Positions 9,420-24,059 of a DNA stretch of 64,000 bases are shown piece after piece. A program made the translations under genes and the position numbers. Each line of letters opens with the position of its first letter. Position 1 is the first letter of the stretch. Source of the stretch: an uncultured Phycisphaerae bacterium (lineage in GTDB: Bacteria > Planctomycetota > Phycisphaerae > Sedimentisphaerales > Anaerobacaceae); NCBI GenBank assembly GCA_963726475.1, contig CAVSCO010000052.1:588-64587 (forward strand). Reading direction: 5' to 3'. The notes beneath the pieces are model-generated. The model had not been told where the DNA came from and searched no databases. It saw only the letters and a list, made by a program, of their open reading frames with translations.

Positions 9420-10493
9420 TCACACGAGTTCGACCTTGTCCCATTTGGTATGTACCGGCTGTGCCTTGACCAACGTGATATCGTTCTCTTTGAACTCGCG
9501 GACGATTTCGAGATTGATGCGTGTTCGGGTCTTCAGGTTAGAAGCCTCTGGCTTGATCCAGTACAACAGCATGATGTCCCGTGAGTACTCGGTAATGGCG
9601 AAGAAACCCGTAACGACCTTCTCCTGTGTATCCGGATCCGACTGGGCAATTCGTTTGAGCAGATCCATCGCCAGAGTGATTTGCTTGTCGTCCATGTCCG
9701 GCGTGAGTCGATAGACTGCAAAGATCTGACGCCCGTTCTCCGTATCGACGTTGACGATATCGGCCTCTGCCACTGCCAGGTTGGGGAGCGTGACGATCCG
9801 CCCCTCGTAGCGAGTTCGAATCCTCGTGCTCCGCAATCCGACGGCGGTCACCACACCGTCGTGGCCGCGTACCTGGATGCGGTCACCGACGCGGAAAGGT
9901 TTGTCGACAAAGATCGCCAGGCTACCGAAGAAGTTCCCAACAGAATGTTGGGCGGCCAAGGCAAAGGCCAGCCCTCCGATGCCCAGGCCCGCCAGCATCG
10001 AGAAGACATTAACGCCGGCCGTGTCCAGAGCCATGATCAAGCCAATGGTCCAGATAGAGGCTTTGATACCTTTACTGACGATCGGGACCAGGTGGTCGTC
10101 CAGATCGCTTTCGGTCTTCTTCGCGAAGGGCAGCAGATACTCTTTGATCAGGGCGTCGAACACGCGTGTGATCGACCAGGCGCCGTCGAGGATCAGCAAG
10201 GCACAGACGACCTTGTCGATATGGTCGCGAATCGCATCACTCATGTCGAGCAAGCTCAGGCCGTACCAGATCCCCATGACGACGACCGCCACGACGAAGG
10301 GCTCCTCCAGCATGTCGACGAGGATATCGTCGAGATGGGTCCGTGTCTTGGCGGCCATCCTCTTGACCGTGCGCCCGATGAGCCAGTAGATGACCCTTCC
10401 GACGACCAGGGATGCAACTACGATCGCAAAGGTGATCAGCCATTGCAGGACCGTATTGCCGTAGTAGGTTTTCGTGAGTATGATTTCCATCAT
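9420..10493 (-). CDS. MscS-family mechanosensitive channel
   Basis: Multiple TMs then AGLGIGGLAFALAAQ...DKPFRVGDRI...GLRSTRIRT...PN. Confidence 0.92.
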   Translation of the reverse strand: MMEIILTKTYYGNTVLQWLITFAIVVASLVVGRVIYWLIGRTVKRMAAKTRTHLDDILVDMLEEPFVVAVVVMGIWYGLSLLDMSDAIRDHIDKVVCALLILDGAWSITRVFDALIKEYLLPFAKKTESDLDDHLVPIVSKGIKASIWTIGLIMALDTAGVNVFSMLAGLGIGGLAFALAAQHSVGNFFGSLAIFVDKPFRVGDRIQVRGHDGVVTAVGLRSTRIRTRYEGRIVTLPNLAVAEADIVNVDTENGRQIFAVYRLTPDMDDKQITLAMDLLKRIAQSDPDTQEKVVTGFFAITEYSRDIMLLYWIKPEASNLKTRTRINLEIVREFKENDITLVKAQPVHTKWDKVELV

Positions 10494-10585
10494 CGCGACA
10501 AACTGCGAGCGAGTGTCACTCCCTGCAAAACACAAGGCTGCGACCGGTTCGGTCTAGACGCCGGCCGACACACCGAACGCGGAGC

Positions 10586-13351
10586 CTACCTGTCCTCCTC
10601 GGCCAATTCACTCAAGGGAATCTCCGAATCCAACAGGGCGTGGATGTCCGGACGACGGAGCATCGTGTCCAACGCCTTCAACTGGCTTTCGATTTCACTG
10701 AGGGTGGCGGCGTAGTAGAGCTCGGTATAGAAGTAGAATCGCGCCGTGTCGGCATCCACCACGTGGATCTGCCCTTTCTTGAGTTCGGGCATGAGCAGCA
10801 CTTTGCCGACGCTGAAATTCCGCAGTCGCATCTGCCTGATTCCGCCATTGAGGACGGCGACGCGCTTGAGCGTCAGCGCCCGCCGCAGGCGAGTGATGTC
10901 CGACTCGTTCTGGATCAGAATGGTGTGCCGTCTGCGTCCGTCGGCCAGAGGCTGATTCAATTCCCACAGTAACTTACTCCAGGTCGCCCGGTCCGGACAA
11001 TCGACCGTGCGAATCTCGGGAATCGGCTCGCTACCGAGACGGCCTTCTTCCATCGATGCACGATCGTACAGGTACGTGATCGCCAGGGCCCTACCGTCGA
11101 AATCCTTCATCCGGTCGCTCTTGCCCTTCATCACGAGATCGCGGAGGAACTTCACGTTGTACCCACCAACCTGCTGCCCCTCGAAGTAAATGATCTTCGA
11201 CGGATCGATCTGCTCATCAACATGCAGGCGCTTGATCACCTCGTAGATCATGCGCGAGACGAGGATCGATTCGCCCGGCACGCTGTCCCGCACAAATGCA
11301 CGGAACGGGGGCCTCTCGCCCAGCCGGAAATCCTTCTCGGCCACCTGCCGGGCCAGGTTCCGGTAGATCACGATGCGCCGGTTCCCCAGCAGGAAGCTCA
11401 GATCGAACACGTCTTCGCTGCGAATCCGATATGAATCGCGGAACAGCTCGTTTCCGAAGCTGTCGAAGTGATCCTCGTCCTTGGGAAGGGCCTGGCGAAT
11501 CTGCCGGTCCTCCGGCAATACATGCGGTGTCAGCACGATGATCACTTCACGTTTCAGCCGGTCCGTCTTCTCCGAACGGAACAACATGCCAACCATGGGG
11601 ATGTCGCCCAAGAGCGGGACCTTGTCCCGGGTCTCAGTCAATTCGCGCGAGACAAGACCGCCGATGATCAGCGGAGTGTTGTTCGGGATTCGCCCGTAGG
11701 TCTGTACCCGACGCGTCGAGATCGTGGGGGCCGAGGCCAATATCGTCCCATCGGGAGCTTTCATCTCCAGGTCTTCGCCAGGAACCCGGGCCGAGACGAT
11801 GGTATCGATGAGCATACTAACGTCCGAACCCGATTCGGTGATGCGAGGTCGAACGTTCAGGAGAATCCCGGTGGGCAGATACTCGAACTGGAAGCTAACC
11901 TTGTTGCCGTAACTGAGCCCCTCCATGCTACTAGCGATCGGAATGTCCTGACCGACGCGAATGGTGGATTGCCGGTTGTTCAACGTCAGCACGCTGGGAC
12001 GGGACAGGATTTCCGCTTTTCCGCTGCGGAGCAGGGCCCGGAGTGTGACCTCCCAATCCCATTGAAACGTCCCCGAAAGAATCTGGTGGATCTGCGATGT
12101 GTTGGTCAGGGTGGCATCAAAGGTCGAAGTGGCCTGGCCGGCCTCGGCCGTCGAACCGCCGGAGACACTCAGGTAGGGATTCTCGTGCAATTGCCAGTCG
12201 ACCCCCAGTTCTTTCAGCCCCTGTTCGCTGATCTCAAGCACCATGGCCTCGATAAAGATCTGGCGAGCCGGACGATCCACGTAGTTGTCCAATACCCGAC
12301 GGACTTCACTGAACTGCTCCGGGTGAGCCGGATGGAACAGCACCAGCAGTTGCGTCATGGGCGAGGCAATCGCGTTATCCGTCAGTTCCGATGCGCCGCC
12401 GGGCGCCATGGAGAGCTTGCCCTTCGAGCTGGTATCCTTCGAACCGACCAGCCCCGTATACTCCTTCTTAGGGTCTTCGATGTTCACAACATAGGGAAGC
12501 TTGGCGAACTCGATCTTGGGCGGCACTTCTTCCGGCTTGCCCATGGTCGTCACGCCGAAGCCCTTGAGCATGCTCAGCGCGGCCTTCGCATCCACATAGC
12601 TTAGTTGGATGATCTTGGCTTCGAGGTCCGTCACGGTCAGGTCCGTGCGCATCTTATCGAGAGAAGCGACGATCTCCTTGATCTTCGGCTCGACCTGAGC
12701 CAGGTCGGGATTCGCAGACAGGGTGCCGTCTTCTGCGACGATCACGCCCATTCCCCAGAACTGGGGTGGCTGGGAAACAAACATCCGATAGCCAAACCGC
12801 AGGACGTAGGTTCCACCGTCTCCCGACCGCGTCAGAATGGTGCCTCCAATAATGCCATCCGGCGGGGTCGGCAGTGCGTCGGCCACGGCACTTGACGCGA
12901 CTGCATAGCTGGACTGCACCCCCAGAGCCAGCGACAAGCGCTCGTTCATCTCGTTGATTTCCATCCGGCTAAGCTTGGGAAGCGCGATGATGCATGTCGA
13001 ATCAGGCGGCAGGGCTTTGGCCGTCGTCATGCTCAGTGCGTCGGCCACGCTCATCTTGGCCGGTGCGGCATTGGGGTCGGCAACGACACCCTGATTGGGG
13101 TCCTCTCCCCCCGAGTCGGCCGGAGCGGTGTTCGAGGCCGGTTCGGGTGTCGGAAGGTCGGCCGCTTCCAACGCCTTGGCGAACTCCTCCAACTGTGCAG
13201 GATCGTTCGCATCCACGATCACCCCGTTCTCCACACGTGGCTCTTCAAGTGATACGGTCCTGTCGGTTTCGACATGCGAAGCACAGCCGGCAAGTAACGA
13301 AAGACACACCAGCCCGGCAACCACCATCGACCGGGCTGCCCTCGCGGTCAT
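10586..13351 (-). CDS. Secretin (GspD/PilQ family) with lipoprotein signal and long C-terminal extension
   Basis: LSLLAGC lipobox; QIFIEAMVLE, AEILSRPSVLTLNN, IRVGQDIP, GILLNVRPRI, IIGGL, KVPLLGDIPMVGMLF, EVIIVLTPHV; start chosen from GAGGAGG RBS. Confidence 0.88.
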   Translation of the reverse strand: MTARAARSMVVAGLVCLSLLAGCASHVETDRTVSLEEPRVENGVIVDANDPAQLEEFAKALEAADLPTPEPASNTAPADSGGEDPNQGVVADPNAAPAKMSVADALSMTTAKALPPDSTCIIALPKLSRMEINEMNERLSLALGVQSSYAVASSAVADALPTPPDGIIGGTILTRSGDGGTYVLRFGYRMFVSQPPQFWGMGVIVAEDGTLSANPDLAQVEPKIKEIVASLDKMRTDLTVTDLEAKIIQLSYVDAKAALSMLKGFGVTTMGKPEEVPPKIEFAKLPYVVNIEDPKKEYTGLVGSKDTSSKGKLSMAPGGASELTDNAIASPMTQLLVLFHPAHPEQFSEVRRVLDNYVDRPARQIFIEAMVLEISEQGLKELGVDWQLHENPYLSVSGGSTAEAGQATSTFDATLTNTSQIHQILSGTFQWDWEVTLRALLRSGKAEILSRPSVLTLNNRQSTIRVGQDIPIASSMEGLSYGNKVSFQFEYLPTGILLNVRPRITESGSDVSMLIDTIVSARVPGEDLEMKAPDGTILASAPTISTRRVQTYGRIPNNTPLIIGGLVSRELTETRDKVPLLGDIPMVGMLFRSEKTDRLKREVIIVLTPHVLPEDRQIRQALPKDEDHFDSFGNELFRDSYRIRSEDVFDLSFLLGNRRIVIYRNLARQVAEKDFRLGERPPFRAFVRDSVPGESILVSRMIYEVIKRLHVDEQIDPSKIIYFEGQQVGGYNVKFLRDLVMKGKSDRMKDFDGRALAITYLYDRASMEEGRLGSEPIPEIRTVDCPDRATWSKLLWELNQPLADGRRRHTILIQNESDITRLRRALTLKRVAVLNGGIRQMRLRNFSVGKVLLMPELKKGQIHVVDADTARFYFYTELYYAATLSEIESQLKALDTMLRRPDIHALLDSEIPLSELAEEDR

Positions 13352-13898
13352 CAACCGGAGAAAACCTCCTCTTGGCATGCAGCGAGGGCCAACCACAGCG
13401 CGATATCCGGCGGTCCCTGGCGAAGGACATGTCTGTACGTGTCTTTGCAGTGTGCTGATGTGCGTCATTCCTCGGCCCTCAATCATGGAGATACAATTGA
13501 TGCACCGTATTCAGTCCGTGGCAATTGAAATCACAGAGGTCCAACCCGGTATCGTCCTCACGAGAGGTTCGAAGGAGGTGGCCACCTACGAACGACGTAG
13601 ACCGATGATGATCACCGGCCGATTCGCGCGTCACCGGTACCATTATATGAGGACCCGTTTTGAAAAGTACAGCAGAATATTCTTGACCATTCTTGTGACT
13701 CAGCGACACTGGTGACAATTTGTCTTGCGCGAAAACAGCTCACGGGTGGGCCGAATTCTGTGCAGTGGCAGCGTCGGCGTGCTTGGACAGTCGGAAACGC
13801 GCATCTCCCGGCAGGATGGCACGCACAAGCGCATCCCACGCATGGTGGCTTCACCCCCATGACGCGAACTCTCAATGTGATACTCGGAGGCAACATCA

Positions 13899-14742
13899 AT
13901 GCACACGCACAGGAGTCTGTTTGCCTGCGTCCTACTTTCATTCGCTCTCGTGTCGGTCGGATGCAGGGAAGCCTGCGATCCTCAGGCGGTTCTCCGCATC
14001 ATCACATTTCCCAACGAGTGGGTAGGAGACATAGACAAGATAGGATTCAATGAGCCGTCAGGAGTCTGTTGGCATGCGCAAAGAGGAACGCTCTTCGTCG
14101 TCGGCGACGAGGGCGACCTCTGTGAGATCACTTCCACAGGCGACCTGGCCAAGCAAGAGCACATTCGGGACGCGGACTTCGAAGGTGTAACATACGATCC
14201 AGCGACGGGTTTGGTGTACCTGGCAGTCGAAGAAGAGGAAGCGGTCCTGGAAATCGACCCGAATACGTTTGCCGTCCTCCGCGAGTTCTCCTTGCCTCGG
14301 GACTTCCGGGGGCAAACTCGGCTGCGAGCCGGTGGCGAAGGAATCGAAGGCATCACATTCGTGCCCGATCCACACCATGCCGAGGGGGGCCTGTTCTACG
14401 TGGCGAATCAGGCCTTCACCCTGACCGACGAGCAGGACATCTCGGCCATTTTCGAGGTGGAATTGCCGCTTCGCAGTCGGACGGGCGAACCCAGAATCAC
14501 CGGGTGCACGAGGCCGGGCATCATCGATCTCTCGGGCCTCAACTACGACCCGACGACAGACCGCATCCTCGTGATTGGCGACGCCACCAACTTGATCATG
14601 GAGTATTCACGCAGACTGGGTCCTCCTGAGCGTCCAGGCCTTCCCGGGTGACAATCAGGAAGGCGTCACGGTCGATCCGGACGGGTTCATCTACATCGCC
14701 CAGGATTCCGGAGGGATCGTGAAGCTCAAGTGGCTTCGCTGA
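13899..14742 (+). CDS. YjiK/SdiA-regulated-like beta-propeller (frameshift near 14620)
   Basis: EPSG, DFEGVT, GIEGIT, DLSGL repeats; last blade NQEGVTVDPDGFIYIAQDSG in another frame ends at 14742. Confidence 0.8.
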
Positions 14743-14759: not shown

Positions 14760-17000
14760 TCAGGACGCCTTGAAACTCGACTTCAAATTCGGCGCACAGA
14801 ACGCCATGGCAATCAGGGCATCCTCTTGTTCGATGTGACACTCCTCACCGTCGAGAGACCCGCTGTGTTTGCGCGGATTCATGATCACCTGGTCTTCCCG
14901 GCGGATGCCCAGCAGGATCACGGGATTGTTGTCGTCACTGCACTGGTACAACAGCCGGGCGCATTCCGCAAACGTCTTGCCCACAAAGGCATCGGGGTAC
15001 GACTCGGGAGGAATGACGTAGATTTCGTTGCCCTCGAACGAATACGTCAGCAGGTCCTTGTATACCACTGACAACTGCTTGTTCACCGCACAGTGGGCGA
15101 GGATACCGACGCCGATCTCCGTCGTACAGATAGTTTCATCGGCCCCTGCATCGCGCAGGTGCAGGCTGTTGTCGGAATTGACCACCTCGGCGATGATATG
15201 CGGCCTTCTCCGCTTGCACTCGCTGAGCAACGCCAGGATGATCATCGCGGACTTGGCGTCAGGATCGGGGCTCTGGCTGTCCGCCAGCACGATGATCGTA
15301 TCGGCCTGGCTTACCATGGCCTTCTTCAGGGTCCCGTGCCTGATGGGATCGTCGTTGATGCAATAGATGTTATCGAACTCGGGAATCCGCAGCAGCGCCC
15401 TCTCGTCCAAGGTTTTGTTGTCGATGATGACGATGTCTGCATCGGGCTTGCCCTCCGGATGGCGCAGTTCGCTGATGACCCTCTTGCCCCGTTCGTTCCA
15501 GTTGCAGATAACGATATGGTCGTTGAGATTCTTGGGCATCTTGATCTCCTCTCTCTTGAGGAACGCCGCCGCAAACCGGCCGGCCACGGCACCGAAGAAG
15601 AATACGCTGAGGACGAAAATAAGCACGGAAATCGCACGGCCCGCCCATGTGACGGGGTAGCGATCCTCGAACCCGCTGAATAGATAGACCGTGATCGACC
15701 AGAACGACTCGGGAACACTCTCGAACGACCGGTTCTGATACCGCTCGCAGAAGTACATCGCCAGGGTCCCGATCACATAGAGGCCGATGAAGACCAGCGC
15801 CAGACGCACGTGGATATGCCTTTGCGTCATGCGACGGAACAGCGTCCTGTATTTGATGGCATAGCCGAGGACAGCAGCGATCGCCAGGGTCCATAGAATC
15901 GTCGGCAAATAGTCGCGCAGGGTCTTCTTGAGAAGGCCTTGTTCATTGAAATATGCGCGGGCCTGAGGGTGCAGCGGGATGATGGGTCTCATCTTCTGGT
16001 CGAGCACACCGTACAGACCTTCATGCAACGAGATTTGGCATCCGGTGAGATCGGCGCCTTCGACGCCGTGTTCCTTCCGAATGACGTCCCTCTTCTCAAA
16101 GATCACGCGTGTCAGGGTGCGGATGAAATCAGGCGGGACTTTCCCGCCGTGGACCTTCGAATCCTCGAAGCCCCGACGGGCCACGAGGATCGCTCGCACG
16201 CCCACGGTGTGAACCGGCTCGGCCTGTCCCCGGTAGGTGTCGGCCGGTATGAAGGTGTAGACGAAATAGGGAAAGGCCCGGATCAAGCGATTGGCCAGCG
16301 CCTCGTTGATCGGGACAACGGTAATCTGGTCTTGCAGCGAAATGCCGTTGATGGTTTCGGTCAGCAGAGGCGTGGGGATACCCGCGGTGACGAACGCCGC
16401 GTCGAGCGAATTGTCCAACAGCATCTCCCGTGCCTCGGAGAACTTGCATCGGACGTCCGTCAGGTCCGCCGCTTCCCACCCGTCCAGAGCAAAAATGCGC
16501 GTAGCGCTGTTGCTGATGTTCTCGGGTGGAGAGCCCGTGCGAATTCGACGACCCTTCAACTGGTCCAGGTGCTCGATCCCGCTCTTGCGCGTGGCGATGA
16601 TCTGGATCAACTCCGTATACAGCGAAGCGACGGCCAGGGCCTTGCTGGACGGCAGGCTGAACATCAACTCGCCATGGCTGAAATAGTAGACGGTGTCGTT
16701 CTGAGCCAGGGCCAGGTCGACCTGCTCGTGATCGATCAGCCGCAGATTCTCGAGGGTTCCGGTCGTCACAACCACTTCAACGGACACTTGACCCGGGTAG
16801 GCTTCCTCGATCACCTTCTTGATGCCGCAGCCTATGGGATAGTAGACCCCGGTCGTGCTTCCCGTCGCGAGGCGAATCGTCACCGGCTGGGCCGATGCTG
16901 CACCCACCAGCAAACCACACACGACCAGGAAGAAGACCAGAATGCTCCGGCAGGACAACGTCCCCGTAGCCTCCAAGCTCTGCAAGTGATCTATGCTCAT
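14760..17000 (-). CDS. Fusion: TAXI-family solute-binding domain + 2TM/pore-loop ion channel + RCK domain
   Basis: LATGSTTGVYYPIG...GTLENL...LALAQND...LYTE...IPLHPQARAYF (TAXI); ESFWSITVYLFSGFEDRYPVTWAGR (pore); HIVICNWN...DAKS...HIIAEV...GADE (RCK); one uninterrupted ORF. Confidence 0.9.
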   Translation of the reverse strand: MSIDHLQSLEATGTLSCRSILVFFLVVCGLLVGAASAQPVTIRLATGSTTGVYYPIGCGIKKVIEEAYPGQVSVEVVVTTGTLENLRLIDHEQVDLALAQNDTVYYFSHGELMFSLPSSKALAVASLYTELIQIIATRKSGIEHLDQLKGRRIRTGSPPENISNSATRIFALDGWEAADLTDVRCKFSEAREMLLDNSLDAAFVTAGIPTPLLTETINGISLQDQITVVPINEALANRLIRAFPYFVYTFIPADTYRGQAEPVHTVGVRAILVARRGFEDSKVHGGKVPPDFIRTLTRVIFEKRDVIRKEHGVEGADLTGCQISLHEGLYGVLDQKMRPIIPLHPQARAYFNEQGLLKKTLRDYLPTILWTLAIAAVLGYAIKYRTLFRRMTQRHIHVRLALVFIGLYVIGTLAMYFCERYQNRSFESVPESFWSITVYLFSGFEDRYPVTWAGRAISVLIFVLSVFFFGAVAGRFAAAFLKREEIKMPKNLNDHIVICNWNERGKRVISELRHPEGKPDADIVIIDNKTLDERALLRIPEFDNIYCINDDPIRHGTLKKAMVSQADTIIVLADSQSPDPDAKSAMIILALLSECKRRRPHIIAEVVNSDNSLHLRDAGADETICTTEIGVGILAHCAVNKQLSVVYKDLLTYSFEGNEIYVIPPESYPDAFVGKTFAECARLLYQCSDDNNPVILLGIRREDQVIMNPRKHSGSLDGEECHIEQEDALIAMAFCAPNLKSSFKAS

Positions 17001-17190
17001 GAATCCTTGGTGAAAGTCCTCGGCTCCTGCCGGCTTGACTCCGTGCCCAATGGAAGATCGATCGTAGCCGCCGGACAAACGCCCGGCAGACTCACAACCA
17101 TCAGTGTCTCCTCTTGGGACGGGCTTGTCAAGTGCCCTTGAATGCTGTTGCGGTCCGAGGGTGTGTAGCCAGTGGGCTCCCGTCGGAGGA

Positions 17191-18247
17191 TCAGGGGCTG
17201 GAAAGCGGGCCGAAGGCCTTTACCAAGACATCGTACTGAGCCTTGGTCAGGGTGATCATGCACCCGTGGCGGACTTTCGGAGGCAACTGGTATTTGTCCC
17301 AGTCGCTGAAGAAGGTGTACCCCGAGATTTGATACCATGGGCCGTTCAGATCGGCCGCCACGGACAGGCCATAGGACACGCCCGGATACTGCTCGTAGTA
17401 GAGGTACCAGACCTTGCCGTCGGGCGAAGGAATCAGGGTTGGCGCTTCTCGGAAGTTCGGACTGATCGGCGCCGAAGGCTCGCTGTAAGGCCCAGACCAA
17501 GACGGCGCACTGCTGATGCGAATGGTTTTGCCCGTAACCCAGTCCAATGTCGGATAACGCTCATCCTTGACGATCGCGTAGTAGCGATCGCCCTGCTTGC
17601 GGATGATCACATCGATGGTGGCCATGTCCCAAGGAAACAGGCGTTTAGGAGGGTTGGAGAAAGTCTTGAGGTCCTTCGACGTGAGATAAAGGGTCCGCTG
17701 ACTGGCCCAGTATCGTTCCGGGTCTTCCGGCGTGCCATGTTCGTGCGGTGTGTGCCAGGTCAGCACGTATCGGGACGAAGCCTCATCATAGAAGAGTTTT
17801 GGCGCACCGATCCGCTGAAGGGCTTGGGAATAGCCAGGCGTCGCCTTCAGATCGGGGGTCACATCGCTGTAGCGTTCCCAATGCACCAGGTCGTCGGAGA
17901 CCCAGAAGTTGATGTCCGGGGCAGAGTCGTTGCGGTTGCCGACCAGGTAGTATCGCCCATCGTGGCCTTTGCAGATGTCCGGATGGCCCTTGTAGTCCGC
18001 GTAGACGCGCTCGCCATCGTTCAAGGCGTTCCAGTGCAGCCCATCAAGGCTCACAGAGTAGTACAGTCGCCCATAGTCCTCATGCATCATGTGGCGCAAA
18101 CAGATACGCTTCGTGGACGGGCTCAGTCCCAACCGCCTGACCGGGCGGATCTGGTTGGCCCGCGTGGACCACACAGACGAGCCACAGAGTGGCCGCGATG
18201 ATAGTTCGAACGCAAATGTGACTCGTCTGTGTCCCCTGCTCTTTCAT
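17191..18247 (-). CDS. GH43-like five-bladed propeller glycoside hydrolase (frameshift near 18093)
   Basis: Signal peptide from ATG 18247; YSVSLDGLHW, GHPDI, SDDLVHW, APKLFYD, ATIDV, REAP. Confidence 0.78.
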
Positions 18248-18266
18248 CTTACGGTATCCTTCAGAA

Positions 18267-20484
<2,218 letters not shown>

Positions 20485-20643
20485 CAACAAATCCTTTCAT
20501 CGCTCTTATTTCTCAAGGCCCATCCGAACCGCAGGGCTCTGAATTAGGACATGTCCAATCACGCGGGATTTTTGCAGAAAAGCACGAAGTGGGCCTGAAA
20601 CAGCCTTGCGCGGGCAAGGCAACATGGTCTGACCGCATTCATC

Positions 20644-21909
20644 TCAGTCCCTCGCAGGCATCTGCGTGGAGAACGGGATTTCCTTTCGGAGCATCTGGCT
20701 CGCCTGGCCGGTGAGCCATAGGTAGTGGTCCGAAGGCTTGCCATCCATGTCGATGAACTGGGCCACGTCACTGACGGGCGGATGATCCGTACACTTGAAG
20801 ATCGCGGTGCCTTCGTTCACCTCATCGAACATGGCGACGTAGAGCTTGTTGGCGCCGGCGCCGATCGCCGTGGAGATGAGCTGCCAATAGAAGCGGCCGC
20901 CCTGCCGAGGGATCGATCCGACGGGTTTGACGTCATCGGGGAATTCGAACCGACTCAGGTTGTGCCAACTGAAGCCCGGATAGACGCAAGGCACATAATC
21001 CACGCCGTTCTCCTGGCACCATTCGATGTCGGCCTTGATCACGTCACGGTAGCGCCACATCTCGTTGTGAAGCAGCGGGCTGAATCGCTGGACCATCCAA
21101 GGCAAGACCAGATCGGCCTGCTTGATCAGTTCGTGCAGATACGGCTCATTTCGGCAATCAGCGTTCAAATCACGCCAGTACGTGGGCACACCCAGCATGA
21201 CGGAGCATCCGCCATATTCGGGGTCGTTGTGGAAAAAGTCGATCAGCTTGTCCAAAGCGATGTTCTTGATGTCGTAGCCGCGATCGGGGAACCCCACTCC
21301 CCAGATGGCCACCAGCGGTTTGCCTCGATGGTGCAGGTACGTCTTGGTACCTGGATGGTTCGTCACCTTCAGCGTGTCGACCAGGAACTTCCAATCATCG
21401 ATGATGCGCAGGCAATCCTCGCCCGAACTGCGAAGGCCGGACAGATCGTACATCACCGCAATGGCCCGCTCGTTCTCGGAGGCAGCCTGGAACGCGAATC
21501 GCAAGACGTCCACCTGCGGTCCGGTGCGGGCACTCGGCCTGGTGGCACCGAAGAACCGCTGCATGAAGACACCGTCGAGCCCGTACTCCTTCATCCATTT
21601 GAAGTGTAGATCGACGGTGCTCTTGTCGGCTGAATTGAAGAACCGAGCCATACTGCCATCGGCCAGTTTCAGGCCGGTTGGATAGGTCTTCTCGTATTCG
21701 CTGACATCGGGCCACATATCGATCCGAATTTTTGACTCATCGGGATACATCCGTCCATCGCGACCGACCCTGAACCAGCCCTGATAGCCTGCCATCGCCA
21801 AACCGTCGTACGAGGGATACTTTGTGATTGGAGAATGCTTGGTTTCCGCAGAGACCCACGTTCCGGCTGCCAGCACGAGCGTCGTGAGGATGATCCAACT
21901 GCCTTTCAT
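20644..21909 (-). CDS. GH71/99-like secreted glycoside hydrolase (xylosidase-annotated family)
   Basis: GYQGWF, HFKWMKEYGLDGVFMQRF, MYDLSG, PGFSWHNL, AMFDEVNEGTAI. Confidence 0.8.
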   Translation of the reverse strand: MKGSWIILTTLVLAAGTWVSAETKHSPITKYPSYDGLAMAGYQGWFRVGRDGRMYPDESKIRIDMWPDVSEYEKTYPTGLKLADGSMARFFNSADKSTVDLHFKWMKEYGLDGVFMQRFFGATRPSARTGPQVDVLRFAFQAASENERAIAVMYDLSGLRSSGEDCLRIIDDWKFLVDTLKVTNHPGTKTYLHHRGKPLVAIWGVGFPDRGYDIKNIALDKLIDFFHNDPEYGGCSVMLGVPTYWRDLNADCRNEPYLHELIKQADLVLPWMVQRFSPLLHNEMWRYRDVIKADIEWCQENGVDYVPCVYPGFSWHNLSRFEFPDDVKPVGSIPRQGGRFYWQLISTAIGAGANKLYVAMFDEVNEGTAIFKCTDHPPVSDVAQFIDMDGKPSDHYLWLTGQASQMLRKEIPFSTQMPARD

Positions 21910-21944
21910 GATTCTTCCTGTCCTTTCGTTCACGAAAGATGTGG

Positions 21945-23780
21945 TTACTTCGCTAATGTATCGGCAGCCGCCTGTTGAAATGCCTGACGGACACCGCTGG
22001 CATCACTGTTTGGGAAGTTCGATCGCTGCACCATGAGGACATAGGCGACACCACGGACGGGGTCGATCCACGCCTGAGTGCCCCAAGCTCCGCCATGGCC
22101 AAACGTACCGGGCGAGAGCATGGCCGCAACCCCCTCGTGCGGCTTGCGCAAGACGCACGTGCCGATTCCCCAGCCGTAGTTGGCGCCGTGATTGCCGAAA
22201 TTGGTCGACTGGAAGAAACCACAGGGCAACGCGCCAGTCTGAACGGCGGTAAGCAGCTTCATCGCGGCCGGACTGAGATAGCGTTTGCCATCCAGTACGC
22301 CTCCGCCGAGCAGCATTTGGCAAAACCGCGCGTAGTCGGGCCCCGTGGAGTACAGTCCACCATTACCGAGCGGAGGATGCCCCGAGACACCATAGCCCGC
22401 ACGTGGAGGCACAGGCTCGAGGGCGCCTGTGGCCCGATTCTTCGCATAGGCCGTGACAATGGTTCCCTTTGCAGGATAGAAAGTCGTATTCTTCATGCCC
22501 AGCGGATCGAGAATGCGCTGCTGAACGAACGTGTCGAAAGACAAACCACTGACCACCTCGACGATTCGCGCGGCCAAATTGATGCCCGATTGCGTGTATT
22601 GCCATTTCGCGCCAGGCTCATACTGCATCGGCACCGCCAGATAGAGCGGGACCAGGTCGGAGAGCGTGCGAGCGTCGCGAGCCTCGTCGCGAGGTGCTTC
22701 CCCCAGACCCGAGGTATGCGTGAGGATCTGCGTGAGGGTGAGATTGGCGGGTTTGCCCGAAGGGGTCTTCAGATCGGCGAAAGCTGCAATGTATTTCGCG
22801 ACAGGATCGGCCACGTTGAGCTTGCCTTCGTCCTGGAGCATCATGACAGCTACTGCCGTAACCGGTTTGGTCATCGAGGCAATCCAGAAACGCGAGTCGG
22901 GTCGCATCGGTGCTCCACTCGCGATATCGGCAAGTCCATGTGTCTGGCAATGCAGAACCTTGTCCTTCGTCACGACAACCGTCACGGCTCCGGATATCTC
23001 GTGTGCGGCAATGGCAGCCTGCATCGCCTCATCGATACCTGCCAATTGCGGCCTGTTTTCAATCGCATCGCCAATGATCCTGGCCATCAGCCCCGCCCCC
23101 TCGGCATTCGGGTGTATGTTGTCGGCAAACCACGCTTGCTTACCCAGGAAAGGCGTGTGGAGGTCGATCACCTCGCAGCCTGTCTCCGCCGCAACCTGAC
23201 GCAGAATGGGAGTCAGTTCCTTCGTGATCACCTCGTCGTTGATTCCCCACATCGTCTTGAAGGCCGGCATAGGCAGACAGACCAGCACCCGTGGCCGAGC
23301 GGGCAGCGTTTGAAACGACTCGATCATCGCCCGCGCATCGGCTGCGAACCGATGCTTGTACTTCCAGTTCTGGGGCTTGCTGTCGTTGCCGCCCAGGTCG
23401 ATAACGACGATATCCGGATTGAACGCCAGCGCTTGCTGATAAGCCCTATCGTTCCAGTAGGGGAAATCGCCGTGCTTGAGCATGGTGCGCCCGTTGACCC
23501 CGTAGTTGCGCACGTCGTACCCCTCGCCCAGGAGGTCCTGCATCTGCGCCGGATAGCAGTTCTTCTGCCGATCTGCAATACCGGCCCCAAAGGTGATGCT
23601 GGCACCGACACAGGCGACCCGCACCTTTGCGACGGACGCCGTTTCAGGCGTGCTCGCTTCGCCGGAGACGGAGCCGCCCCACCCCTGCGTCCAGAAAGCT
23701 AGAACCATCCAGATGAGAAACCTCGCTCGCCCCGGGAATTGGCAACATCGGCCTGCCCCTGCCTGTGACCCAATGTTCAT
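21945..23780 (-). CDS. Fusion: SGNH/GDSL esterase + serine hydrolase (class C beta-lactamase fold)
   Basis: ACVGASIT...GVNG...LGGND...DNIHPN then IASMTK (SxxK), LTHTSG, WQY, HGG. Confidence 0.85.
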   Translation of the reverse strand: MNIGSQAGAGRCCQFPGRARFLIWMVLAFWTQGWGGSVSGEASTPETASVAKVRVACVGASITFGAGIADRQKNCYPAQMQDLLGEGYDVRNYGVNGRTMLKHGDFPYWNDRAYQQALAFNPDIVVIDLGGNDSKPQNWKYKHRFAADARAMIESFQTLPARPRVLVCLPMPAFKTMWGINDEVITKELTPILRQVAAETGCEVIDLHTPFLGKQAWFADNIHPNAEGAGLMARIIGDAIENRPQLAGIDEAMQAAIAAHEISGAVTVVVTKDKVLHCQTHGLADIASGAPMRPDSRFWIASMTKPVTAVAVMMLQDEGKLNVADPVAKYIAAFADLKTPSGKPANLTLTQILTHTSGLGEAPRDEARDARTLSDLVPLYLAVPMQYEPGAKWQYTQSGINLAARIVEVVSGLSFDTFVQQRILDPLGMKNTTFYPAKGTIVTAYAKNRATGALEPVPPRAGYGVSGHPPLGNGGLYSTGPDYARFCQMLLGGGVLDGKRYLSPAAMKLLTAVQTGALPCGFFQSTNFGNHGANYGWGIGTCVLRKPHEGVAAMLSPGTFGHGGAWGTQAWIDPVRGVAYVLMVQRSNFPNSDASGVRQAFQQAAADTLAK

Positions 23781-24059
23781 GGTCTTCTCTCCGCCAACTG
23801 CTGATACCATCGTCCGACCCTCCCAAGAGGAACACGAGTTCGGATAGCATCATCTATCGTACGGCCCCGGCCGGGCGATGTCTACCGATTCCGTCACCGT
23901 GGAAGGCCTCGTCATGGGAGACACGGATTGTCGGTGCGTTGGCGAAATGTGGGCAAGTGGTGGGACGAAACATCTGGGGGACATCCAAAGTCTCGGAAGA
24001 GCGGGTGTGGTCGACCGCCTCCAAAACCTGCACTGCGGGTTGTAGCCCCCCCCACGCCA

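Follow-up and report, generated by a model that had tools for sequence, protein, structure and literature searches.

A TAXI-type solute-binding domain fused to an RCK-regulated P-loop pore: a candidate family of ligand-sensing cation channels in bacteria

Until 2025, TAXI-type solute-binding proteins were thought to serve TRAP permeases only, and those linked to TRAP transporters work with an adjacent fused (QM) permease. TAXI-GltS fusions, which carry a TAXI protein on a non-TRAP carrier, have been described as transporters and termed unprecedented, with no channel mentioned (PMC12344293). Among channels, a binding-protein-type clamshell fused to a tetrameric P-loop pore is the logic of GluR0 and the ionotropic glutamate receptors (iGluRs), and MthK (PDB 1lnq, 3rbz, 6oly) represents the one-RCK channels with two transmembrane (TM) helices. 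In this work we have analysed a gene located on the minus strand of a 64,000-nt stretch of DNA (the window) from an uncultured Phycisphaerae bacterium (assembly GCA_963726475.1, contig CAVSCO010000052.1, forward-strand positions 588 to 64,587), which encodes a TAXI-type domain followed in the same chain by an MthK-like pore and an RCK domain. The interpretation that we favour, with moderate confidence, is that its product is a tetrameric MthK-type cation channel, probably not selective for K+, which senses both a periplasmic amino-acid-like ligand and a cytoplasmic signal received by the RCK domain. To judge from sequence comparisons, it belongs to a large family, apparently undescribed so far, in which a TAXI domain is joined to an RCK-regulated P-loop channel whose filter reads S-G-[FL]-E. 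A first-pass annotation of this DNA knew of no account of such an architecture, and our literature search (most subscription journals being outside its reach) found no description of a TAXI-channel fusion either; a survey of prokaryotic iGluRs does not list it (PMC2950845).

Architecture of the fused protein

The open reading frame (ORF) extends without interruption over 14760..17078 on the minus strand and has 772 codons from its first TTG (P0001); residue numbering throughout is that of this ORF. Since the homologs all start at codon 27 of this frame, which is an ATG at 17000 with AAGGA 3 nt upstream, the gene itself is taken as 14760..17000, that is, 746 residues from Met27 to the stop codon at 14760-14762. 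The TAXI and channel parts share one reading frame in the window as well as in 18 independent GTDB assemblies (17 metagenome-assembled genomes (MAGs) of the Phycisphaerae clade and the complete chromosome CP070675.1), and this rules out an assembly chimera, another artefact or a frameshift. A further locus, in a Cloacimonadota MAG (L031), is cut at the contig end. The single open frame read at 14760-17000 in the first-pass annotation is therefore borne out by the ORF calls, and the order of parts that it had given (signal peptide, TAXI domain, linker TM helix, M1, pore helix, M2 and RCK) agrees with the profile matches, the alignment to MthK and the AlphaFold2 (AF2) model.

The protein starts with a signal peptide (residues 27-63, 16890..17000), which has a basic residue near its N-terminus, a hydrophobic core, modelled by AF2 as a helix at mature residues 14-35, and an A-S-A then Q-P site of the cleavage type, at which it is presumably cleaved. 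The TAXI-type domain follows (residues 64-381, 15936..16889) and is predicted to be periplasmic. It matches the whole Pfam NMT1_3 profile (PF16868; residues 48/70-381, E 4e-49, 168 bits, profile positions 1-289 of 289) and nearly all of TIGR02122 (TAXI; 193.9 bits, with the cutoff at 84.35, over profile positions 7-320 of 320). The solved TAXI chains 1us4, 8u79 and 8s4j match it by sequence with E of 1e-28 to 1e-30, and its AF2 model has the two-lobed fold, with a TM-score by target of 0.75-0.83 and a root-mean-square deviation of 2.8-3.7 to TAXI models of the ESM Atlas. An extra TM helix, here called TM0 (residues 387-409, 15852..15920; AF2 helix at mature residues 361-383), would bring the chain back to the cytoplasm, and the loop that joins it to M1 (residues 410-421) is strongly basic, being rich in K, R and H.

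The channel half comprises the outer helix M1 (residues 422-445, 15744..15815), aligned by HMMER to MthK and KcsA and helical in AF2, whose last residue, Glu445, is invariant in 39 family sequences; a pore helix (residues 455-466, 15681..15716) with invariant W460 and Y465; the filter position (residues 467-472, 15663..15680); the inner helix M2 (residues 478-509, 15552..15647), also placed by the HMMER alignment and AF2; and the RCK domain (residues 518-772, 14763..15527), predicted to be cytoplasmic and composed of a Rossmann N-lobe and a C-lobe. In a phmmer search of the PDB sequences, residues ~424-737 were collinear with MthK residues 21-308 (E 3e-13), and KcsA, KCNQ, Slo1 and GsuK were also matched, the MthK, KcsA and KCNQ alignments having E from 1e-13 to 1e-5. 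The RCK domain, which aligns to MthK residues 116-308 and displays the alternating beta/alpha pattern in AF2, scores above the cutoffs of TrkA_N (PF02254; residues 522-651, 46.5 against 23.8 bits) and Slo-like_RCK (PF22614; residues 518-618, 42.7 against 24 bits). RCK1 of DMI1/CASTOR was matched as well as the MthK RCK (E 3e-13), with the Castor_Poll_mid profile remaining below threshold (16 bits against 26.7). The AF2 model has a pLDDT of 85.4 for the channel half and 82.3 for the full length, and Foldseek ranked MthK first (E 4e-18), followed by Slo1 and Slo2. A fold of the pore module (residues 416-516) in four copies gave a median score of 0.18, which speaks neither for a tetramer nor against one.

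The topology that results is internally consistent. As both the TM0-M1 loop and the stretch after M2 are basic, the positive-inside rule would place the TAXI domain and the turret and filter mouth in the periplasm and the RCK domain in the cytoplasm, with the pore in the KcsA/MthK orientation. This is the arrangement that had been proposed in the first-pass annotation, and the AxA signal peptide agrees with it.

The fused protein appears to work most like an MthK to which an extracytoplasmic sensor has been added. Both share M1, pore helix, M2 and one RCK domain from end to end, as well as an internal Met with a ribosome-binding site just before the RCK domain, whereas the signal peptide, TAXI domain and TM0 are additions and the filter reads FSGFE instead of TVGYG. 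CASTOR, POLLUX and DMI1 (PDB 6o7c, 7vm8; PMC6697748) resemble it in the RCK N-lobe, in being 2TM+RCK proteins without TVGYG and in having an acidic filter; their tandem RCK domains are found again in the ~1000-residue members of the present family, while the window protein has one. They are, however, eukaryotic, with the filter ADSGNHA, four N-terminal helices and no extracytoplasmic binding domain. GluR0 and the iGluRs share the general logic and probably the ligand class (amino acids), but they are built in another way: their binding domain is of the PBPb/Lig_chan type and not TAXI (cluster F), it is split (S1/S2) around the pore instead of lying contiguously upstream of the channel helices (residues 64-381), and their pore is inverted, whereas the window protein has a KcsA-oriented pore plus TM0 and a cytoplasmic RCK domain. 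The earlier claim of a construction distinct from the glutamate-receptor design is thus upheld. Finally, TAXI-GltS proteins also carry an N-terminal TAXI domain on a non-TRAP membrane protein, although the partner is a carrier there and a channel module with RCK here.

Ligand pocket, filter and RCK domain

Regarding the ligand, the fused domain has the full TAXI fold of TtGluBP (1us4/1us5) and VcGluP (8s4j) and also the glutamate-contact residues that correspond to Y45, Q93 and E125. In VcGluP, Y45 and Q93 dominate glutamate affinity, their mutation costing 213- and 990-fold, and E125 helps to hold the amino group of glutamate (Davies et al., PMC11574862); across TAXI proteins at large, no more than 54% have this Gln (PMC11574862). 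A HMMER alignment to VcGluP (8s4j) gave the pocket equivalences, in which S40, V44, Y45, Y46, S75 and Q93 correspond to S74, V78, Y79, Y80, T108 and Q126, and H123, E125, Y200, M201 and G203 to Y154, E156, V230, T231 and G233. When 38 full-length members were compared, down to 26% identity, Y79 and Q126 were present in all of them, E156 in 37, Y154 in 33, and S or T at position 108 in 34. Furthermore, of 30 distant members, 26 share with the Thermus protein 1us4 an S-G-T in the loop that binds the alpha-carboxylate. The conservation of these residues argues for real ligand binding, and the family as a whole looks like one of amino-acid binders of the glutamate/glutamine type.

The filter is the second conserved element. 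K+ selectivity depends on the cage formed by TVGYG, that is, on the second Gly together with the carbonyl and hydroxyl groups of Thr and Val. Channels such as NaK, CNG and CASTOR, in which an acidic side chain occupies the Y/G positions of the filter or comes after them, either are non-selective or select for Ca2+. In the window protein, HMMER sets F-S-G-F-E-D over T-V-G-Y-G-D of MthK, so the replacement noted at 15663-15680 in the first-pass annotation is confirmed by the alignment and the codon positions, and the replacement itself is conserved. Along the 118 aligned representatives, the successive positions are Y (98), [LIV] (104), [FL] (88), S (100), G (116), [FL] (91), E (92, with D in 8), [D/S/G] (82) and [RK] (80), and they are followed, after one x position, by a P-x-T-x-x-G pattern with P in 115, T in 108 and G in 115. 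SGFE and SGLE occur in 37 representatives each, so that at least 74 of the 118 have the consensus S-G-[FL]-E, and TVGYG occurs in one. Few columns of the entire alignment are as well conserved as the filter motif, the Trp and Tyr of the pore helix and P-x-T-x-x-G. That a motif other than GYG has been kept so well across the family argues for a working pore of different selectivity rather than for decay. With a conserved Glu in place of the second Gly of GYG, the protein would be a cation channel that is not K+-selective, possibly one handling divalent ions. A precedent is CASTOR, a 2TM+RCK channel without TVGYG that is Ca2+-selective by measurement and in which the filter Asp is essential (PMC6697748). 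A monophyletic subgroup of stand-alone proteins (330-500 residues; P0097, P0118, P0122, P0124, P0131, P0134, P0137, P0146, P0171 and P0194), nested among the TAXI-fused forms, has G-E-Y-[PA]-[DE] at the filter position.

The RCK domain carries a further MthK-like trait. In MthK, Met107 is an internal start that supplies the four soluble RCK domains of the octameric ring. Met514 of the window protein, part of a near-invariant K-M-P just after M2, lies 2 residues from the Met107 position in the alignment, and its codon (15537-15539) is preceded by AGGAG (15546-15550) with a 6-nt spacer, so that the element at 15537..15550 may direct synthesis of a separate soluble RCK product of 259 residues. 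Of 21 loci, 20 have a core resembling a Shine-Dalgarno (SD) sequence ahead of this Met, the five distant loci among them; the background frequency per position is 0.10-0.26. At the sequence level, the family seems to obtain a second RCK in one of three ways, namely the internal SD and ATG, a tandem RCK in the ~1000-residue members or a separate RCK ORF next to that of the channel, which points to an MthK-like ring of eight RCK domains. Two loci of Planctomycetota (G116:C281:3353-5210 and G244:C78:9290-11157) have an RCK-only ORF directly after the pore+RCK ORF. It starts at the position of the internal Met and looks like a two-gene supply of soluble RCK subunits; the RCK-only ORF of G116 contains one TAG.

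As for what the RCK domain binds, it contains no GxGxxG dinucleotide motif of the KTN subtype. The first beta-alpha turn is C-N-W-N-E-R-G; the form C-N-W-N-x-R-G is invariant in the family and resembles the 'GWS' of MthK and CASTOR. Of the three residues of the MthK Ca2+ site, only E210 has a kept equivalent (E631), D184 and E212 being replaced by Leu and Val, and gating by Ca2+ is not claimed, as the triad is not conserved. A cation site might be formed by E631 and by an acidic loop, S-P-D-P-D-A, that is conserved. The Ca(I) residues of CASTOR seem not to be kept, but mapping of the CASTOR Ca2+ sites (D442/D444, E493) onto this domain was dropped because the alignment was ambiguous.

A family present in several phyla

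The first-pass annotation needs one correction of emphasis: the protein is not singular but one of a large multi-phylum family that is already in the databases under the TAXI/TRAP name, and full-length homologs proved to be abundant and diverse. A word-indexed search returned ~70 clusters of 67-99% identity and 715-760 residues, all with PF16868, PF02254 and PF22614 and, where named, called 'TAXI family TRAP transporter solute-binding subunit', from MAGs of Phycisphaerae, Sedimentisphaerales and Anaerohalosphaera, plus three further members at 33-41% identity. An exhaustive phmmer search with the channel+RCK half as query, over 1.84 billion representatives at 50% identity, yielded 3278 matches, 202 of them at E<1e-30. 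Among the best 150 of these 202, 62 have TAXI, pore and one RCK (~680-780 residues), 10-17 have TAXI, pore and two tandem RCKs (~980-1050 residues) and ~40 consist of pore and RCK only (330-400 residues); most of the long forms that phmmer missed are TAXI by Pfam. The exhaustive search thereby brought in no fewer than 75 additional clusters, at 50% identity, in which TAXI and pore are combined with one or two RCKs; they are distributed over several phyla. The ESM Atlas also holds clusters (at least 50 members) of NMT1_3 with Slo-like_RCK, with or without TrkA_N, of ~720-805 residues in Myxococcota, Bacteroidota and Acidobacteriota, and the fused member of the complete Phycisphaerales chromosome CP070675.1 is 44% identical to the window protein. 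Stand-alone pore+RCK genes were found inside contigs of Calditrichaceae, Cyanobacteria and other MAGs.

When the pore+RCK module was placed in a maximum-likelihood tree, TAXI-fused forms fell to either side of the midpoint, stand-alone forms made up small nested clades and two-RCK forms arose at least twice. Because of the first of these observations, the fusion seems to be old and maintained, and it is the commonest state in the sampled pore family. Its distribution within the phylum is patchy: channel+RCK relatives were present in 32 of 301 genomes sampled, with none in the 16 sampled genomes of the same order or class. One of the relatives in the phylum, in a single-contig 9.5-Mb genome (G176:C1:5681873-5682949), has one in-frame TAG in the channel+RCK match, with an open frame of 766 residues, and may be a pseudogene or contain a sequencing error.

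Working model, alternatives and genomic context

There is no TRAP permease in the window, as the first-pass annotation had said, and no match to the fused TRAP permease profile TIGR02123 anywhere on its contig. The only TIGR02123 match in the assembly, which is 67% complete, is on contig C88, directly downstream of a separate TAXI gene of 339-352 residues whose product is 27% identical to the fused TAXI domain; with so low an identity, we rejected the idea of a recent duplication of this canonical gene. The C88 locus (C88:40755-43644, L001-L003) is the only canonical TAXI-TRAP operon of the genome. Its TAXI protein has the GSG loop intact, and its fused permease scores 571 bits with TIGR02123, the N-terminal Q-like part being matched separately in another frame segment. 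The contigs of two distant members (P0079 and P0085) likewise have unrelated neighbours and no TRAP permease, and none adjoins the other distant loci that were compared.

We propose that four subunits would form the pore, each holding a TAXI clamshell in the periplasm by means of TM0 and an RCK domain in the cytoplasm, and that four soluble RCK copies from the internal start would complete an octameric gating ring, as in MthK. An amino-acid-like ligand of the glutamate/glutamine type would close the clamshell and bias the pore towards opening, the coupling being made through TM0 and the basic TM0-M1 loop or through contact with the turret, and the RCK ring would represent a second, cytoplasmic gate. 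As the filter has a Glu and in most cases an acidic or small residue next to it, the pore might be permeable to divalent ions or blocked by them, as comparison with NaK, CNG and CASTOR suggests. The external solute would not be taken up; its presence would be signalled by a flow of ions or by a shift of the membrane potential. A channel gated from both sides and probably not K+-selective, as the first-pass annotation had proposed, is thus supported to the extent that sequence analysis allows. More tentatively, and with rather less confidence than for the single protein, these proteins could be widespread bacterial ionotropic amino-acid receptors, independent of iGluRs and present in at least six phyla, in which closure of the clamshell opens a divalent-permeable, non-K+-selective pore while an octameric RCK ring integrates a cytoplasmic signal; a nutrient sensed outside the cell would then be translated without intermediates into an ion or voltage signal.

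Several observations weigh against this model. Gating by the TAXI domain is not obvious because its link to the pore, through a TM helix and a cytoplasmic loop, is less direct than the coupling in iGluRs. The Ion_trans_2 match (residues 430-506) is below the Pfam gathering score, with 19.5 against 22.5 bits. In the window's own clade, the alpha-carboxylate loop (the G156 loop of VcGluP; PPEN here in place of xGSG) is P-P-E-N-I; since this replaces S-G-T, the clade may have shifted its ligand, and that of the window protein may differ from that of the family. Regarding the internal start, purine-rich codons after M2 could mimic an SD sequence, and the occurrence of a Met514 equivalent in 71 of 97 one-RCK representatives (the others having mostly V, L or I) against 3 of 21 two-RCK ones is confounded by phylogeny, as the two-RCK forms belong to few clades. 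Besides, the RCK domain keeps only one residue of the MthK Ca2+ site and lacks GxGxxG.

Other explanations were weighed against the same data. It is unlikely that the protein is a new facilitator for binding-protein-dependent uptake, with the TAXI domain capturing a solute or an ion and handing it to the pore for translocation. TAXI proteins do normally serve transporters, and TAXI-GltS, which has a non-TRAP partner and whose logic would be followed here, is described as one (PMC12344293); there is no adjacent TRAP permease in this case either. However, the membrane part is a 2TM P-loop module and not an elevator or a carrier, and its narrow filter would not let an amino acid through. RCK rings serve to gate channels and K+ transport systems, and the pocket residues indicate an amino-acid ligand rather than an inorganic ion. 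We regard as slightly less probable still an RCK-gated channel in which the TAXI domain takes no part in gating, being either a structural cap or a tethered binding protein for another system, such as the C88 TRAP permease or a chemoreceptor. Membrane-anchored TAXI proteins are known, according to the title of a paper by Roden et al. cited in PMC11574862, the genome does have a TAXI-type TRAP permease, and the indirect path through TM0 would fit such a role. Against this, the C88 permease has its own adjacent TAXI protein, only distantly similar to the fused domain, the distant members also lack nearby permeases, and a fusion kept across phyla and over the whole tree of the pore family is hard to explain unless both parts work together.

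The remaining two explanations concern the pore. The protein might be a non-conducting receptor, with a degenerate pore that serves as a tetramerisation scaffold and with ligand binding relayed to the RCK ring and then to other partners, a possibility that we find about as improbable as a non-gating TAXI domain. The GYG signature is lost, the pore scores below the Pfam cutoff, and RCK/KTN domains regulate separate membrane proteins in the Ktr and Trk systems. Nevertheless, the high conservation of the filter motif, the pore-helix Trp and Tyr and P-x-T-x-x-G is the opposite of what a decayed pore would display, and no conserved partner gene was found outside the close clade. At the other extreme, it is very improbable that the protein is a conventional K+ channel like MthK or Kch to which a periplasmic domain has been added as an accessory: MthK, Slo and KcsA head the matches by sequence and by fold, and NCBIfam gives a weak match to Kch, but F-S-G-F-E occupies the place of T-V-G-Y-G, a motif retained by a single one of the representatives.

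If the ligand-sensing cation channel that we favour is correct, it would represent a second, independent route from a binding protein and a P-loop pore to a ligand-gated channel, which bears on the origins of glutamate receptors, and it would give TAXI proteins a new role. The family would also be a convenient object for studying how bacteria answer external solutes with electrical or ionic signals. In addition, an S-G-[FL]-E filter naturally conserved in an MthK scaffold would be useful for studies of selectivity. As for annotation, hundreds of entries named 'TAXI family TRAP transporter solute-binding subunit' are to be corrected to channel fusions.

A conserved partner gene was sought across the related loci, 28 of which were obtained in a pattern-limited search with tight alignment that under-samples the family; there was clade-level synteny only, with nothing common to the distant loci. 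Three neighbours are conserved in the close clade, namely genes for a secretin, for an SdiA-regulated/phytase-like protein and for an MscS-like protein. The MscS-like channel gene (9420-10535, minus strand; PF00924, PF21088 and PF21082) is near the TAXI-channel gene in 13 related loci (for example L017, L018, L019 and L010), and in three related loci it is located directly upstream on the same strand, with gaps of -19 to 22 bp; this neighbour may hint at a common role in osmotic or ion homeostasis. The secretin (966 residues; 10586-13486, minus strand) matches PF00263 only over residues 485-657, has long N- and C-terminal extensions without a Pfam match; in 14 related loci its gene has been kept at a distance of ~1.2 kb from that of the channel. 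The SdiA-regulated/phytase-like gene (13899-14651, plus strand), which encodes a beta-propeller of 250 residues, is convergent with the channel gene and occupies the same place in 13 related loci. Upstream of the channel gene and on the same strand there is a glycoside-hydrolase-like run (17191-21933, minus strand) that includes a GH43-like protein (327 residues), an unassigned 173-residue ORF that overlaps the next gene by 137 nt, a GH2 protein (612 residues), and a 429-residue ORF that matches GH99 with 23 bits, short of the Pfam cutoff of 33. Beyond it, at 21945-23810 (minus strand), there is a gene for a 621-residue fusion of a GDSL lipase/acylhydrolase (residues 65-245 of that protein) with a beta-lactamase/transpeptidase-like domain (260-613).

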